A stretch of 46,426 nucleotides of DNA from Candidatus Micrarchaeota archaeon (GTDB lineage Archaea; Micrarchaeota; Micrarchaeia; Norongarragalinales; UBA8480): positions 1 to 46,426 of the forward strand of contig JAZDHP010000010.1 in NCBI GenBank assembly GCA_043805855.1. Reading direction: 5' to 3'. The position numbers and the translations under genes were made by a program. The notes under the pieces are model-generated. The model saw nothing but the letters and a program-made list of their open reading frames with translations, was not told the DNA's origin and made no database searches. Positions 4,786-31,330 of the stretch are shown here, piece after piece (position 1 is the first letter of the stretch; the number at the start of each line of letters is the position of its first letter).

Positions 4786-6133
4786 TTTCTTCAATCACCA
4801 TTTGCGTTGCGATGCCGATTATTTCCTTAGCGTAGTCTTTTGGGAAGCGCGTTGACGCGGCTACGTTGTGCCCGCCTCCTGAGAAGCCGTACTTTTCAAA
4901 CTCTTTGCGCAGTATAGTTATAACTTTATTTGCAGAAAACCCAACTTGTGCAGCTTCTTGGTTTGCCCTGAATGAAAGAGAATCTTGTGTGTACAATAAA
5001 GTTGCAGTTGGTGCGTTACTGTTCTTTTCTACATAATGATTTTGCACGGCGTTGTGTAGCTTTCCAATAGAAGGATAAGTATTTTTCTTCACTAAACCGC
5101 TGGCGTCACATATATAGAGCGCGAATTTGCCAGTGTGTTCTTTTGACTTGCGTAGCGTTTTTTCCAACGCGTTTCTCATGTGCATTTGCTCTTCGTGATA
5201 GAGTTCGTTTGACAAATGCCTATCGCGGCTAACTTTTTCGTAATACTCTAGTGAATACGGTTCGTCGGCCTTTACTGCTAAATAGTCCAGCGCAACTGCT
5301 TCAGGAAAGAATTCTTTTAGCCTGAAAGAGCTGTGGTCACCTTGCATTGAGATATTACACAATGGGCGTATTTCTTTTTCCAATTCCAGCGCAAAATAGC
5401 GCGTTAGTTCAAAAACTAACAGCGCCGTGTTGTAACTTGATGGCTCTTCGCAGTTTTTCAACGCGAACGGTGACACGAATACTTTGAGTGCTGGTTTCTT
5501 TGCCGGTGGGTGGTGGTCAATGCACATTACTTCGAGCGTCTTCGCTGCTTCTGTTACATTGTAAACGCTTTCCTCGTTTGCCCCGTGGTCGAGGAGAATA
5601 AGTAAGCTGCCTTCGACTAAAGTTGACGTATCTTCCTCTGCGTCTCTATCGCGATAAACTGCTCCGTTTGCCTCTTGCGCGCGTAGAAATAGCGGTGCGC
5701 CTCGCTGTTTTGCAAAGCTTTCAATTGCTTTTTTCAACATTATCCCAGCGCATATGCCGTCGCAATCTCCATCGTAGCGTATTTTTATCTGCTTCATTGA
5801 CAATACCGCGTTGGCTATTTCCTGCGATGCGCGTTGGAATTCTCCTTCCATTTCTTTCAGCGAAGGTGCGTTGTTTAATGGTTCCAAGTGCGGCGGTTCA
5901 AAATAAGTGAATTTTTCAATTTCTTTTTCTATTTTGTCGTCTTTCCCTGGTTCTATTTTCTCAACGTTGTCCGCTTGGAATAAATAACTCGCGTACTCGC
6001 CTTGCATTTCGTAGATTTTGCCATCTTGTAACTCTTCCATTGTTTCAACTAGCGTGAACTTTTCAGAAGTGCACGCGTAGTAGCGCATTGTTGACATTGC
6101 GTCTCTTTTTATTATTTTTACGACGATTTTCAT
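4763..6133 (-). CDS. RecJ/Cdc45-like DHH-family nuclease (DHH plus DHHA1)
   Basis: IRYDGDCDGICAG, LILLDHG, CIDHH and GGGHNVAAS motifs; start placed at ATG 6133. Confidence 0.85.
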   Translation of the reverse strand: MKIVVKIIKRDAMSTMRYYACTSEKFTLVETMEELQDGKIYEMQGEYASYLFQADNVEKIEPGKDDKIEKEIEKFTYFEPPHLEPLNNAPSLKEMEGEFQRASQEIANAVLSMKQIKIRYDGDCDGICAGIMLKKAIESFAKQRGAPLFLRAQEANGAVYRDRDAEEDTSTLVEGSLLILLDHGANEESVYNVTEAAKTLEVMCIDHHPPAKKPALKVFVSPFALKNCEEPSSYNTALLVFELTRYFALELEKEIRPLCNISMQGDHSSFRLKEFFPEAVALDYLAVKADEPYSLEYYEKVSRDRHLSNELYHEEQMHMRNALEKTLRKSKEHTGKFALYICDASGLVKKNTYPSIGKLHNAVQNHYVEKNSNAPTATLLYTQDSLSFRANQEAAQVGFSANKVITILRKEFEKYGFSGGGHNVAASTRFPKDYAKEIIGIATQMVIEENGNETSK

Positions 6134-6220
6134 CTTTCTTGGTATCACGAGGGTTTTTATTTTTACAAGTAGCTCTTTATAGATATAATTGTACACTATT
6201 TTAGAGAAGGTGCTAATTAA

Positions 6221-6478
6221 ATGGAAGCTATTATTGAAAACTATCGCCGTGGAAGGCACACTGAGTACTGTGACCAGTTTATTGTATTCATTGAAGACTG
6301 CGATTCCCTTGCAAAGGCAGAGAAGCTAGTCGGCAAGCAAGTTACTTGGAAAACGCCATCTGGAAAATCTATTCTTGGTAAAGTCGCTGGAACGCACGGC
6401 AACGGTGGCAAAGTTAGAGTAAAGATGGAAAAAGGTTTGCCAGGCCAAGCAGTTGGAACTAAAATTGAAATCGCCTAG
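6221..6478 (+). CDS. rpl35ae: 50S ribosomal protein L35Ae
   Basis: NYRRGRHT...LVGKQVTWKTPSGK...GKV.GTHGNGGKVRV...GLPGQA.G. Confidence 0.95.
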   Translation: MEAIIENYRRGRHTEYCDQFIVFIEDCDSLAKAEKLVGKQVTWKTPSGKSILGKVAGTHGNGGKVRVKMEKGLPGQAVGTKIEIA

Positions 6479-14145: not shown

Positions 14146-14166
14146 ACCTAAGGATCGGGGTTCAAA

Positions 14167-27782: not shown

Positions 27783-28949
27783 GTGGGAGTTTTACTTGAA
27801 AAGATAAAAGATGGCAAAATAATTGTAACCGACGCGTCGAGCGTTGGCTCGCTGTTAAAAGGGTTTTTCGGAAGCCAGTACGGTGAGAACAAATCTAAAA
27901 TACAACTAATGCCAGAAGAAGCGCTGTATCTTTCAGATGTGCGTAACGCCGTGTGTACAGACAATAATGTTCCAATTACTTTTAACGAGTTAGCTGCGCC
28001 TTTCAAAGACCAAGAAAAATTTCTTGCAAGATATTTTTGTTACCGTGACTGGCGTGACCGTGCGTTAATTGCACGGGATATGAGCGAAGCTGAAGATACT
28101 AACTATGGCCGCTCGCCAGTTGTCAAATATCCTTCGCAGGATTTAGTTGTACCTCAAGTCAAGAGCAAGGCGCTGTACTTTCCCGACGATTTAATGGCGG
28201 TCATGGACGACGATGAAGAAGGCCGTTCACTTTACGACGGCTATTGGCTTGGACAGTACGGCACTTACAAAGCGAAAAAACACGGCCGCTTACTTAAGCT
28301 AGACGCTTATGAGTGTCTATTCCTCGCAAAGCACGGAAAGATGAAACTCGATATTTCTCCGACGAAATTGCTCCGCGAGGCAAAAAAGCGCCGCAATGAC
28401 TTCGAAGCGCTGTACGACGTTTACGAAGATTTACGCCTGCGTGGTTTCGTGTTGAAAACTGGGTTTAAGTTCGGAACACACTTTCGTTTGTACTTCCCCG
28501 GCGCAAAGCCATCGCTTGACCAAGCAGAGTGGATGCACTCGAAGCACGTTATCCACGTTTTTCCACGCGACGCAAAGATGCTAATTTCAGAGTGGGCGCG
28601 CGCAATTAGAGTGGCGCACGGGGTGAAGAAAACTTTCATCTTGGCAATTCCAGGGAGAAAGCGCGAGTCAAAAGCTAAACTTGATTTCTTACTTTACCAC
28701 CGGAAGCACGGCAACGCGGAGAATCCAAAGGAACACAAACCGAAGTTCGTAATGCTGGCGTTGAGTGAAGAGGAGGAAATCGGCGGACAAGAATTGGCGC
28801 AGGCTATAGTGAGAGCAAAAGACTTAGGTCTCGACTTGATTTTAAGTATCTGCGACCGCGAGACAAGCATAACGCACTATCGTGTTAAACGTATTGAACT
28901 GCCAAAAAGTCAATACGAATACTATGAGATTGAGTGGGTACAACCATGA
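27783..28949 (+). CDS. endA: tRNA-splicing endonuclease, three-unit epsilon2 (ARMAN) type
   Basis: 388 aa; EEALYL unit; catalytic unit KTGFKFGTHFRLY...HSKH...RVAHGVKK; ARMAN-specific-loop-like GQYGTYKAKKHG. Confidence 0.92.
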   Translation: MGVLLEKIKDGKIIVTDASSVGSLLKGFFGSQYGENKSKIQLMPEEALYLSDVRNAVCTDNNVPITFNELAAPFKDQEKFLARYFCYRDWRDRALIARDMSEAEDTNYGRSPVVKYPSQDLVVPQVKSKALYFPDDLMAVMDDDEEGRSLYDGYWLGQYGTYKAKKHGRLLKLDAYECLFLAKHGKMKLDISPTKLLREAKKRRNDFEALYDVYEDLRLRGFVLKTGFKFGTHFRLYFPGAKPSLDQAEWMHSKHVIHVFPRDAKMLISEWARAIRVAHGVKKTFILAIPGRKRESKAKLDFLLYHRKHGNAENPKEHKPKFVMLALSEEEEIGGQELAQAIVRAKDLGLDLILSICDRETSITHYRVKRIELPKSQYEYYEIEWVQP

Positions 28950-29050
28950 TTAGCTTAGATTTACTTAAAGGTTTCTTTTTTCATCGATGTTTTTTCTTTG
29001 TGAAAGAAAAAAGATCGGAGTATTATGAGATTGAGTGGGTGCAACCTTAA
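28917..29050 (+). repeat. 33-nt direct repeat of the endA 3' end (28917-28949 and 29018-29050) flanking a T/A hairpin
   Basis: GAATACTATGAGATTGAGTGGGTACAACCATGA versus GAGTATTATGAGATTGAGTGGGTGCAACCTTAA; both encode EYYEIEWVQP-stop. Confidence 0.9.
28946..29050 (+). CDS. Possible 34-aa peptide ending in the EndA C-terminal decapeptide
   Basis: MISLDLLKGFFFHRCFFFVKEKRSEYYEIEWVQP; ATGA overlap with endA and TAATG overlap with the next gene. Confidence 0.3.
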   Translation: MISLDLLKGFFFHRCFFFVKEKRSEYYEIEWVQP

Positions 29051-29694
29051 TGGCACATTTATATTATTATGATTCAGCTCCGCCGCATTTTTCTGAAAAA
29101 AGCACCAGAACATTGGGAAGAATGTTAGTTAGATTATCTGACTTTATGCACAAAAAGGGAATTAAGCAGATAGTAGGGATTGGTCCAACTGCAACGCCGT
29201 ACGTGCGGGCAATTGCACGTGCGCATGCTAACCGTTACGGGGTTAAGCTAAAAGTTGTTGCGCTTGGCCATGCTGGTGAAAGAATTTCCCGAGCCGCTAA
29301 TGATATTTCAATACCTCTTGCAGCTGATTTGCTTTCTAATGAGCTAGCTGATTGTAGAAAGAAAACGTTATTGTTTGATGAAATTGTTGACAAGGGTACG
29401 CAAATGAAAGGCATTAAAGCTGCATTTAAACATCTCCAAATTCCGCACGAAACAGCTACTTTTGCAAAACACCCCCGCTCTTGCTATAGTCGTTTATCGT
29501 TTGTTGGCGGTAATTTGCTTTATCTTCCATGGGATTTCATACGTGCACTTCAGTTACGGCGAGGCCAGCTGTTAAGTGACTATTATTCGGGAACTCCTGG
29601 CAAGCGGCGGTATGAGGTAAGTTTAGCTTTTGATCATTTGAGAAAAGTGAGAAAAGAACTTCGCGAAATCGCTAATTCAGTTCCACGAAAGTGA
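29050..29694 (+). CDS. Basic protein with phosphoribosyltransferase-like motif
   Basis: KKTLLFDEIVDKGTQM resembles the type I PRTase PRPP loop; ATG 29050. Confidence 0.55.
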   Translation: MAHLYYYDSAPPHFSEKSTRTLGRMLVRLSDFMHKKGIKQIVGIGPTATPYVRAIARAHANRYGVKLKVVALGHAGERISRAANDISIPLAADLLSNELADCRKKTLLFDEIVDKGTQMKGIKAAFKHLQIPHETATFAKHPRSCYSRLSFVGGNLLYLPWDFIRALQLRRGQLLSDYYSGTPGKRRYEVSLAFDHLRKVRKELREIANSVPRK

Positions 29695-29756
29695 CTTATT
29701 TATTGTAGAGTATGGTACGCAAAACCTTATAAATGTTGCGGGGTATAATATGCAAT

Positions 29757-31115
29757 ATGATAAATGATGAAATTGGTTTTGTTAATGAGCTTTTGAAGGT
29801 AAACGAATGGTGGGCTACTGGAACGTCTAGAAAAGCTGAGAAATATCCTAAACGCCGGACAGTTTTTTCAAAGCTTGAAACTGAGTTGCAATCTAATCGC
29901 GTATTAATGTTGTTTGGATGCCGTAGGGTTGGCAAGTCAGTAGCGTTGCACCAACTTATTCAAAAATTACTAGATTCGAGAGTTCCTAGGGAAAACATTC
30001 TTTACTATCAACTTGACGATCCTTCGCTGTTGAGTTACGCAAGCGAGCCAGTTAAAGATTTGATTGAATATGCCTTGTCGAAAAAAAACAGGGGCAAAAC
30101 CTACGTTTTCCTTGACGAAGTTCAAGCTTCCCAAGAGTGGTATAAATGGATAAAAGCGTACCAAGACAGGCAGCTTGACTTGAAGTTCGTGCTTTCTGGT
30201 TCCTCTAGCCTTAGGATTCAAACTGATGCAAATAAGTACTTGCGGGGCAGAACAACTGAAGTGGAAATGTCTCCACTTGGTTTTCGCGAGTTTCTTGAAA
30301 TGAACGAAATTGAAATTCCGCATGTAAAAAAAGATGCAGCAAGTTTATCTGTGGCCAAAACTAAACTGTCAAAACCACTTGAAGAGTATATGCTTGTAGG
30401 TGGTTTTCCAGAGTGGCTTGAAGTGAAAAAACAGGAAGATTCAGTTCAACGTTGGATGAGTCACTTGCTAAGTGATGTTCCGAAAAAAGCCATTTATGAA
30501 GATATCGCGGTTTTTTTCGGCATACGTAACCCGAAAGTGCTTGACCTCTTGCTTAATTTCATTGCGGTAAACCAAAGCAAAATACTATCGTATGAAAAAA
30601 TGTCTCAAACAGTTGGTATTGACCGGTTAACTATTTTAAACTATTTGGAATTCCTCAAGGCAAGTTACTTGATTTTTGAAATTCCAGTTTACGGCAGCCC
30701 CAAAAAGCAAATTAAAGCGATGAAAAAGTTTCTAGTGACTGACCAAGGGTTAAGGAACTCGCTTGTTAAGGAGTATTCACTCCGCGAGGACAATCAAGGG
30801 TTTATAGTTGAAAACCTAGTTGGAACAACATTATACTCAAACTTTGAAAGCGTAACTTACTGGCGTGAACAGAAGCACGAAGTTGACTTTGTAGCTGGCG
30901 ATATTCCAATTGAGGTAAAGTACAAGAATGTAATAGGTAAGGGAGATTTGAATGGTTTGTTGAAATTCCTGGAAAAAAACGGAAAAAACAAAGGCGCGGT
31001 AATAACTAAAGATAAGTTTGGCAGAGAAACTATTGAAAACAAGCAAATAACATTCATTCCATTTTGGCTCTTTTTGCTAGAACCAAATATTATTAGCGAG
31101 GGAGTAAAACAATGA
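29757..31115 (+). CDS. AAA_14 ATPase with DUF4143 (PD-(D/E)xK-like) C-terminus
   Basis: GCRRVGKS, VFLDEVQ, SGSSSL, LRGR, GGFPE, EVDFV...IPIEVKY. Confidence 0.9.
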   Translation: MINDEIGFVNELLKVNEWWATGTSRKAEKYPKRRTVFSKLETELQSNRVLMLFGCRRVGKSVALHQLIQKLLDSRVPRENILYYQLDDPSLLSYASEPVKDLIEYALSKKNRGKTYVFLDEVQASQEWYKWIKAYQDRQLDLKFVLSGSSSLRIQTDANKYLRGRTTEVEMSPLGFREFLEMNEIEIPHVKKDAASLSVAKTKLSKPLEEYMLVGGFPEWLEVKKQEDSVQRWMSHLLSDVPKKAIYEDIAVFFGIRNPKVLDLLLNFIAVNQSKILSYEKMSQTVGIDRLTILNYLEFLKASYLIFEIPVYGSPKKQIKAMKKFLVTDQGLRNSLVKEYSLREDNQGFIVENLVGTTLYSNFESVTYWREQKHEVDFVAGDIPIEVKYKNVIGKGDLNGLLKFLEKNGKNKGAVITKDKFGRETIENKQITFIPFWLFLLEPNIISEGVKQ

Positions 31116-31330
31116 GTGAAGAGCGCCATTTCTCGCCTGAACATGCTGAAACGTTGAAGGGAATTTTTGTTCGGTTATCTGACTTTATGCATGAAAAAGG
31201 AATTGAGCAAATTGCGGGTATTGGTCCAACTGCCACGCCATTCGTTAGAGCAATTGCTGTTCCGCAGTTGATTTATACTTTAACTGGACAAATTATTGGT
31301 GAAAGTTATGGGTGTTTTTGGCACTGTTGA
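31112..31330 (+). pseudogene. Truncated paralog of 29050..29694
   Basis: HFS...VRLSDFMHEKGIEQIAGIGPTATPFVRAIA matches the N-terminus, then similarity ends near 31258. Confidence 0.7.

Follow-up and report, generated by a model that had tools for sequence, protein, structure and literature searches.

In Thermoproteales, related introns have reportedly spread among the transfer RNA (tRNA) genes of one archaeal genome by 'intron transposition'. Non-long-terminal-repeat (non-LTR) retroelements and short interspersed elements (SINEs) insert by target priming, and translational bypass elements are known from gene 60 of phage T4 and, as 'byps', from the mitochondria of a yeast. A bulge-helix-bulge (BHB) intron lies in an archaeal protein gene, cbf5 of Crenarchaeota (PMC2738675), casposons, whose duplications measure 1–27 nucleotides (nt) with a median of 15, are directed to the 3′-distal part of aEF-2 or to the terminal bases of a tRNA gene (PMC4046053), and the model drawn for Caldiarchaeum lets integrase-borne elements disrupt tRNA genes while a part of the gene is duplicated on integration (PMC3293823). 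The present study concerns the 46,426-nt contig JAZDHP010000010.1 of Candidatus Micrarchaeota archaeon (hereafter the window), in which the 3′ end of endA, the gene of the tRNA-splicing endonuclease, occurs twice around a hairpin-bearing spacer. Our findings suggest that this duplicate is probably the footprint of a mobile hairpin module derived from a tRNA intron, which inserted at the endA 3′ end and duplicated 33 nt of its target.

The window is the entire contig C10 of the source genome (G000; 1.03 Mb in 67 contigs, ~92% complete, 41% G+C). Among the other genomes named below, G002 and G003 belong to the same genus as G000, and G036 and G040 to another family, the genus of G040 being called g18. 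The duplicated end comprises the following features, in which ORF stands for open reading frame.

27783..28949, + strand: endA, three-unit (epsilon2-type) tRNA-splicing endonuclease of 388 aa (ORF, Pfam and PDB match)
28917..28950, + strand: copy 1, the working last 10 endA codons (EYYEIEWVQP) with the TGA stop and 1 base, in frame with endA
28951..29017, − strand: inserted tRNA-intron module of 67 nt, antisense to endA, recognised by its identity to the tRNA-Gly(TCC) intron of G002; its parts are a variable part (28951–28969), a T-rich tail (28970–28982) and the hairpin (28985–29017)
29018..29051, + strand: copy 2, the displaced endA end, a direct repeat that abuts the hairpin and whose TAA overlaps the ATG of gene X
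28946..29050, + strand: 34-codon ORF whose ATG overlaps the endA stop (ATGA) and which crosses the insert and copy 2, its TAA at 29048–29050 overlapping the ATG of X at 29050
29050..29694, + strand: gene X, 214 aa, no Pfam family

The last 10 codons and stop of endA recur at a start-to-start distance of 101 nt, and both direct reading of the sequence and an independent repeat search give 29 of 34 identical bases. Four of the differences are synonymous (GAA/GAG, TAC/TAT, GTA/GTG and CCA/CCT) and the fifth exchanges one stop for another (TGA/TAA), so that the repeat and its five silent differences, as described in an earlier note on this DNA, were confirmed in full. By a binomial estimate, a match of at least 29/34 at any of 1500 offsets would arise by chance with a probability of ~4e-10. 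A tandem duplication of 101 nt was ruled out since the bases past copy 2 are unrelated to the spacer. In G003, where endA has a single end followed directly by X with an overlapping stop and start (TGATGATG), this end differs from copy 2 at 3 bases and from copy 1 at 4. The coupled 34-aa ORF, with its ATG over the endA stop and its stop over the next ATG, was also read directly in the sequence as the earlier note had it; note that its frame opens at an upstream GTG too (28934..29050), and that its counterpart in G002 has 28 codons and a GTG start 1 nt past the endA stop.

The insert itself is not private to endA. Indeed, positions 28972–29018 are identical to the reverse complement of the G002 tRNA-Gly(TCC) intron at 46 of 47 positions, and over 28963–29017 the match to the same intron is 51/55 with one gap and stops exactly at the outer base of the hairpin; on these sequence grounds, the endA spacer is a near-full-length antisense copy of a tRNA-intron module. 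The exons of tRNA-Gly(TCC) were not found in the G000 assembly. The hairpin arms (28985–28999 and 29003–29017) have 15 nt each, are 93% complementary and enclose a 3-nt loop, and single-strand folding gives the hairpin as the sole stable element (whole-region z-scores of −0.9 and −0.7). Its core, TTTCTTT-N2-6-AAAGAAA, occurs 54 times in the G000 genome and 0 times in each of 5 shuffles, and 34 and 18 times in G002 and G003, respectively, against 1 control match each. The likeness to tRNA-intron hairpins that the earlier note had pointed out was thus understated. Most hairpin copies of G000 are intron parts within tRNA genes, with a purine-rich tail after the hairpin; as an example, the tRNA-Trp gene at 14161/14294 shows a canonical hBHBh′ motif (a BHB with its flanking helices) around a 133-nt T-loop intron made of such modules. 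An Rfam scan of four loci placed no family on the module and returned two weak chance matches to unrelated families.

In G000, ARAGORN finds 11 tRNA genes and the Rfam tRNA model gives 7 matches, 5 of them above the cut-off. We attribute this small number in a ~92%-complete genome to multiple or large module-built introns, which hide most of the tRNA genes from detection.

Comparison of the endA downstream regions in related genomes, the check proposed in the earlier note, covered 62 gene ends across the order (endA is present in 65 of its 68 genomes), 60 of which are followed by ~300 nt or more of sequence. A duplicated endA end behind a hairpin-bearing spacer was found at 4 of these 60 loci, in G000, G002, G036 and G040, and the modules differ. 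The G002 duplicate has 33 nt at a spacing of 85, and its insert matches a tRNA-Ala(TGC)-type intron at 43/47 positions (cross-comparison scores of 45 and 48 versus 70 and 92). G040 carries an unrelated, G+C-rich hairpin module that has a tail of its own, and in both G036 and G040 the duplicates stand with modules unrelated to that of G000 and without gene X. As the identical 33-nt stretch is duplicated in G000, G002 and G040, one target combined with different modules points either to repeated hits or to an old insertion whose module was exchanged. Covariation between the G000 and G002 stems was ruled out as proof of shared descent, since the stems belong to different module subfamilies that are also found in tRNA genes. 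Decay of the displaced end is seen as a change of E to G in copy 2 of G002 and as degenerate remnants after endA in G024, G032 and G063.

Other arrangements behind or within endA were also observed. In G040 (L015, ~2860–2900), a further partial endA end (~5 last codons, the stop and the next bases) lies ~150 nt past copy 2 and adjoins another hairpin type, which directly follows the endA stop in G062 and G064. In several genomes of g18 (L009, L012, L013, L030 and L037), a unit of ~70 nt is tandemly repeated behind endA; it begins with the endA stop and 5 bases, has a G5/C5 hairpin inside and closes each time with an apparent, decayed repeat of the endA end. In G002 (L021), endA is read in two pieces that overlap, with masked sequence and a shift of frame around residue 190 that may stem from either an assembly gap or a real break. 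In G030 (L022), a 27-residue Lys/Glu-rich insertion lies in the EndA linker between the first and second units.

The layout seen at endA, namely gene end and stop, linker, tail, hairpin, and again gene end and stop, is shared by other gene ends, and in every case the hairpin abuts copy 2 and the tail precedes the hairpin, with a variable 0–32 nt to copy 1; the duplication length ranges from ~16 to ~56 nt across loci. The G040 module has 25 matches in g18. Of these, 16 lie behind protein genes (rpoB, Hsp20, one resembling NrdR, and others) whose ends are present in duplicate to either side of the module; among the other matches, one duplicates a tRNA 5′ end and 4 or 5 represent T-loop introns within tRNA genes. 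The rpoB end is hit in 3 of 7 congeners (L093 in G062, L097 in G036 and L098 in G024), the duplicated stretch of G062 differing in length from that of G024 and G036, whose insert looks shared, and Hsp20 is hit in 2 of the 6 matching congeners (7 searched). In G000 itself, two tRNA 3′ ends are duplicated around a module in reverse orientation (contig C9, ~30770–30870, and C32, ~6105–6225), the duplicates measuring 16 nt and, with flank included, 32 nt. When 16 more hairpins of G002 and G003 were sampled, none had a flanking duplicate of at least 16/20, and the signature is therefore rare in this genus outside endA and the two tRNA ends. The duplicates of four pairs (L068, L070, L074 and L091) are exact, which indicates that the duplication was made in place on insertion, and other spare copies have decayed, L090 having a frameshift and the spare rpoB end of G036 an internal deletion. 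The general cause of the duplicate is probably the hairpin module.

We propose that the module inserted at the endA 3′ end and duplicated a 33-nt target (the last 10 codons and the stop). Copy 1 completes endA, and the native junction with X is retained by copy 2, the displaced end. Such an insertion would be tolerated, with endA whole upstream and the junction to X untouched downstream, and the bridging ORF in this genus probably preserves the endA–X translational coupling seen in G003. The module may have entered either by target-primed copying of an excised intron RNA, in which a nick at the gene end would be followed by a staggered second cut, or by staggered-cut transposition. Both of these routes would fit an orientation that is constant, a module that ends exactly at the hairpin and a duplication of variable length. 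Of the features of a DNA transposon or miniature inverted-repeat transposable element (MITE), the direct target duplication is present; terminal inverted repeats are absent, the insert being one-ended (a tail and one hairpin). As for features of the att type, the duplicated block mostly ends 0–3 nt past the gene end, one module family has many different targets, and no integrase was found beside the module in the window and at the g18 loci; the search of G000 gave only two tyrosine recombinases.

Downstream of X, the locus holds three more features on the same strand.

29733..31115, + strand: AAA_14 / DUF4143 ATPase gene (Pfam) between the two X copies
31086..31115, + strand: copy 3, a decayed endA end that now supplies the final codons of the ATPase ORF and immediately precedes the X′ ATG
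31112..31330, + strand: X′, a shortened second copy of gene X with ~49 homologous codons

Gene X is confined to this genus apart from a weak match in G007 (4 of 68 genomes), and X of G000 is only 38–40% identical to X of G002 and G003, where EndA keeps 84–93%. The ATPase gene is missing at this place in G002 and G003, has six weaker paralogous matches in the G000 genome and may be mobile cargo. Copy 3 is identical to the copy 1 region in 24 of 32 alignment columns with a 2-nt gap, a local alignment score that 13 of 500 shuffles reach as well, and its alignment to 'copy 2 + X start' of G002 continues unbroken into X′. The repeat between X and X′ (29109–29225 versus 31150–31266) shows 76% identity, with 80% over 97 nt by blastn and 70% over 44 aa by tblastn. 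The N-terminus of X′ (MSEERHFSPEH) is of the congener type, its first 13 residues being the same as in X of G002, and the differences from G002 lie mostly at third positions; X′ was evidently, as its sequence reads, under purifying selection until recently. Copy 3 and the shortened X′ imply that the locus was hit more than once in G000, and copy 2, full-length X and the ATPase gene may have entered together. Within copy 2, a TATTAT ~27 nt upstream of the ATG might conceivably serve as a promoter for X, an idea that does not apply to G040, which lacks a gene after copy 2.

Several observations weigh against the insertion of a mobile module as we have described it. In the ~92%-complete G000, neither a reverse transcriptase (RVT_1) nor a Cas1 or TnpB-type domain was found, the IS200/IS605 TnpA not having been searched for, and the identical 33-nt target in G000, G002 and G040 calls for a preferred site or else for a very old insertion in which modules were swapped. 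In addition, the outer end of the duplicate lies mostly 0–3 nt past the gene end, even in exact pairs, and this fixed position is not as expected of a random staggered cut. Above all, the spare copies are unlike neutral relics: among 18 alignable pairs of copy 1 and copy 2, 43 codon differences are synonymous and 10 are non-synonymous, 7 of the 8 stop codons that differ are stops in both copies, and the binomial P is ~1e-9 under the assumption that one copy is neutral, with pairs that are partly non-independent. This comparison left out 7 of 25 cases without a stop-anchored alignment, and in 3 of these 7 the tails of the duplicates have changed. The two Hsp20 copies of G024 differ silently at 11 of 19 codons and share two residues that are absent in 5/5 congeners. 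For this gene, an origin of copy 2 as an allele from another species is unlikely owing to these shared residues. Readthrough of the copy 1 stop was ruled out as an explanation, since the offsets fall in all three frames (3, 6 and 8 of 17 offsets for 0, 1 and 2 mod 3), and gene conversion from copy 1 cannot by itself keep copy 2 alike, as it cannot yield saturated silent differences with almost no replacements; some gene conversion is nonetheless likely, to judge from the shared ATT in G000 and GAT in G036. The remark of the earlier note that all differences are silent points to a real pattern, one that extends over many loci.

We also consider whether the module could be an intron of the endA message. 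EndA carries the Pfam domains PF01974 and PF02778 (tRNA_int_endo C and N domains), its residues 9–388 of 388 match the epsilon2 enzyme of ARMAN-2 (PDB 4FZ2/9W2K, E 9e-131), and with one ~390-aa chain made of an N-domain, a catalytic unit and an extra C-terminal unit it is predicted to be an epsilon2 enzyme, for which a relaxed motif at endA is possible. No BHB motif (a 4-bp helix and two 3-nt bulges with flanking helices) that would restore the endA frame was found in scans at endA in the duplicate-bearing genomes; the strict scan covered G000 and G002 fully and G040 in part, permissive settings being swamped by A/T-rich false matches, and the same scanner recovers the true motif of tRNA-Trp. 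An in-register BHB scan of 17 pairs gave best flank totals of 0–6 bp with no shared position, and the best structure at endA that restores the native C-terminus is a 6-bp helix with 1-nt bulges. Since the module is antisense and no BHB was found, an intron reading is unlikely: self-splicing of the endA mRNA is not supported, and the module is probably not an intron of the endA message. Likewise, no evidence was seen for an element that regulates EndA or is spliced from its mRNA.

An unlikely alternative is that the module is skipped in expression, so that copy 2 would be a further 3′ end that endA and the other genes actually use. The epsilon2 enzyme, with its broad specificity, might cut the mRNA at a relaxed motif and rejoin it, or else a ribosome or a polymerase might jump over the hairpin from one matching repeat to the other. 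Such skipping would account for the coding-like evolution of copy 2, including multi-step synonymous changes within one codon (AGA/CGG, AGG/CGC), and for the lineage-specific residues that copies within a genome share (ERG, DKG and EKG in rpoB, Q and E in Hsp20), and the same modules do stand within true tRNA introns of G000 with the hBHBh′ motif, such as that of tRNA-Trp. The starts of the endA copies can also pair over 6 bp (AAUACU:AGUAUU in G000, AGUACU in G040, AAUAUU in G002), a pairing that the GAA/GAG and TAC/TAT changes of G000 keep; however, this pairing largely follows from GAR-TAY codons, and a complementary pair as in G000 would arise by chance in ~1 in 4 cases. The missing frame-restoring BHB at endA and in the 17 pairs, together with the antisense module, also speaks against skipping, as does the 5′ part of copy 2, which is broken in endA and rpoB of G036 and in L090. 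As both ends encode the same protein, the insert would be harmless whether it is skipped or not, and selection on the protein would continue to act on both.

It is still less probable that the duplicate is a plain recombination scar, in which copy 2 came from a foreign endA allele arriving with X and the ATPase gene and the module stands at the joint by coincidence. This idea of the earlier note draws on the displaced older unit (copy 3 and shortened X′) downstream of the ATPase gene, on the congener-type N-terminus of X′ and its selection until recently, on the low identity of full-length X to its congeners, and on the stop of copy 2, which overlaps the ATG of X like a native junction. The displaced unit gives partial support to the claim as far as copy 2 and the cassette are concerned. 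A duplicate can nevertheless exist with no cassette: in G002, it stands with a module but without the ATPase gene, and the duplicates of G040 and G036 exist with unrelated modules and without gene X. The layout is moreover common to ~16 unrelated gene ends and 3 tRNA ends, some of the duplicates being exact, and X evolves fast even between G002 and G003, so that its low identity alone is no proof of foreign origin. The other proposal of the earlier note, a peptide or RNA feature selected for its effect on the splicing enzyme, fared worse. A 34-aa product that ends in the C-terminal strand of EndA (EYYEIEWVQP) and competes for or modulates EndA subunit contacts is very improbable, although the ORF is open and well placed (ATGA at its start, TAATG at its end) and the G002 counterpart keeps the same frame relative to copy 2, the module lengths differing by a multiple of three. 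Among the four duplicate-bearing genomes compared, only G000 and G002 have such an ORF, no canonical-start ORF running through copy 2 in G040 and G036; furthermore, E has become G inside the strand in the G002 copy, the N-terminal two thirds of the product are the module read in one frame, and the layout also occurs at genes without such logic, while at the RNA level the absence of a BHB and the antisense module tell against the claim. Finally, an assembly chimera of two strains, conceivable in a ~92%-complete assembly of 67 contigs with copies that differ at silent sites only, as strain variants would, is hardly credible, since the layout recurs in independent assemblies (G002, G036, G040 and many other loci), a bubble in the assembly graph would not place the module between the copies, and some pairs are exact duplicates.

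The insertion of a mobile module, which we favour, bears on the spread of archaeal tRNA introns, an old question for which the window offers a near-perfect intron copy outside a tRNA gene with a fresh-looking footprint. Dozens of sister cases, from exact to old, make the mechanism of entry tractable, because orientation, exact ends and duplication length can be read from them. The repeated hits on the ends of the same essential genes (endA, rpoB and Hsp20) and the coding-like spare copies suggest either a new route of expression across inserts or a new constraint on gene junctions in compact genomes. Tentatively, and with considerable doubt, one may go further and suppose that, in this order, tRNA-intron-derived modules colonise the ends of protein genes, endA included, through duplication of those ends, with the gene expressed via either copy and the module skipped at the RNA or ribosome level. 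If skipping were true, it would make the modules a novel class of protein-gene inserts in archaea, harmless by design, explain why frame, residues and stops are kept despite silent drift, and provide a living model of archaeal intron birth. Annotators of these genomes should also be aware that a short ORF or a 'recoded' duplicate following a gene is the footprint of a module.

Within the literature searched, no report was found of hairpin modules in Micrarchaeota, of duplicated gene ends in that group or of an endA intron. Like the intron families of Thermoproteales, the modules form a family that fills most tRNA introns, and the endA insert is near-identical to one such intron; unlike them, the endA copy lies in the end of a protein gene, is antisense, lacks a splice motif and is flanked by a 33-nt target duplication. 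To our knowledge, copies in protein-gene ends that are antisense, motif-less and flanked by duplications are not part of the published picture of those families. With non-LTR retroelements and SINEs, the module shares the variable duplication length, the one exact end, the fixed orientation to the primed strand and the nature of an RNA-derived passenger that uses enzymes encoded elsewhere, although no reverse transcriptase was found in the ~92%-complete G000; we know of no description of target-primed insertion for archaeal BHB introns. The bypass elements resemble the locus in being short hairpin inserts in a coding region with matching codons on both sides and a stop at the take-off side, but their protein requires the jump, whereas endA copy 1 ends the protein properly and no jump is needed. 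The cbf5 intron is likewise an intron-type RNA element in a protein gene of an archaeon with a broad-specificity EndA; it has a BHB and must be spliced to restore the frame, whereas at endA the full protein is encoded even without splicing, and no BHB could be drawn. Casposons share with our module the targeting of archaeal gene ends and the long direct target duplications (PMC4046053), but they are large, encode Cas1 and PolB and carry terminal inverted repeats, in contrast to an insert of 50–70 nt that is one-ended, has duplications of up to ~56 nt and comes from a genome in which Cas1 was not found (PMC4046053). In the model for the Caldiarchaeum elements, too, a gene fragment is repeated around the insert, the block extends to the gene end and a link to the gain of tRNA introns is drawn (PMC3293823); those elements, however, are kilobases long, bring their own recombinase and use one target, whereas here a tiny module duplicates a different target at each locus (PMC3293823).

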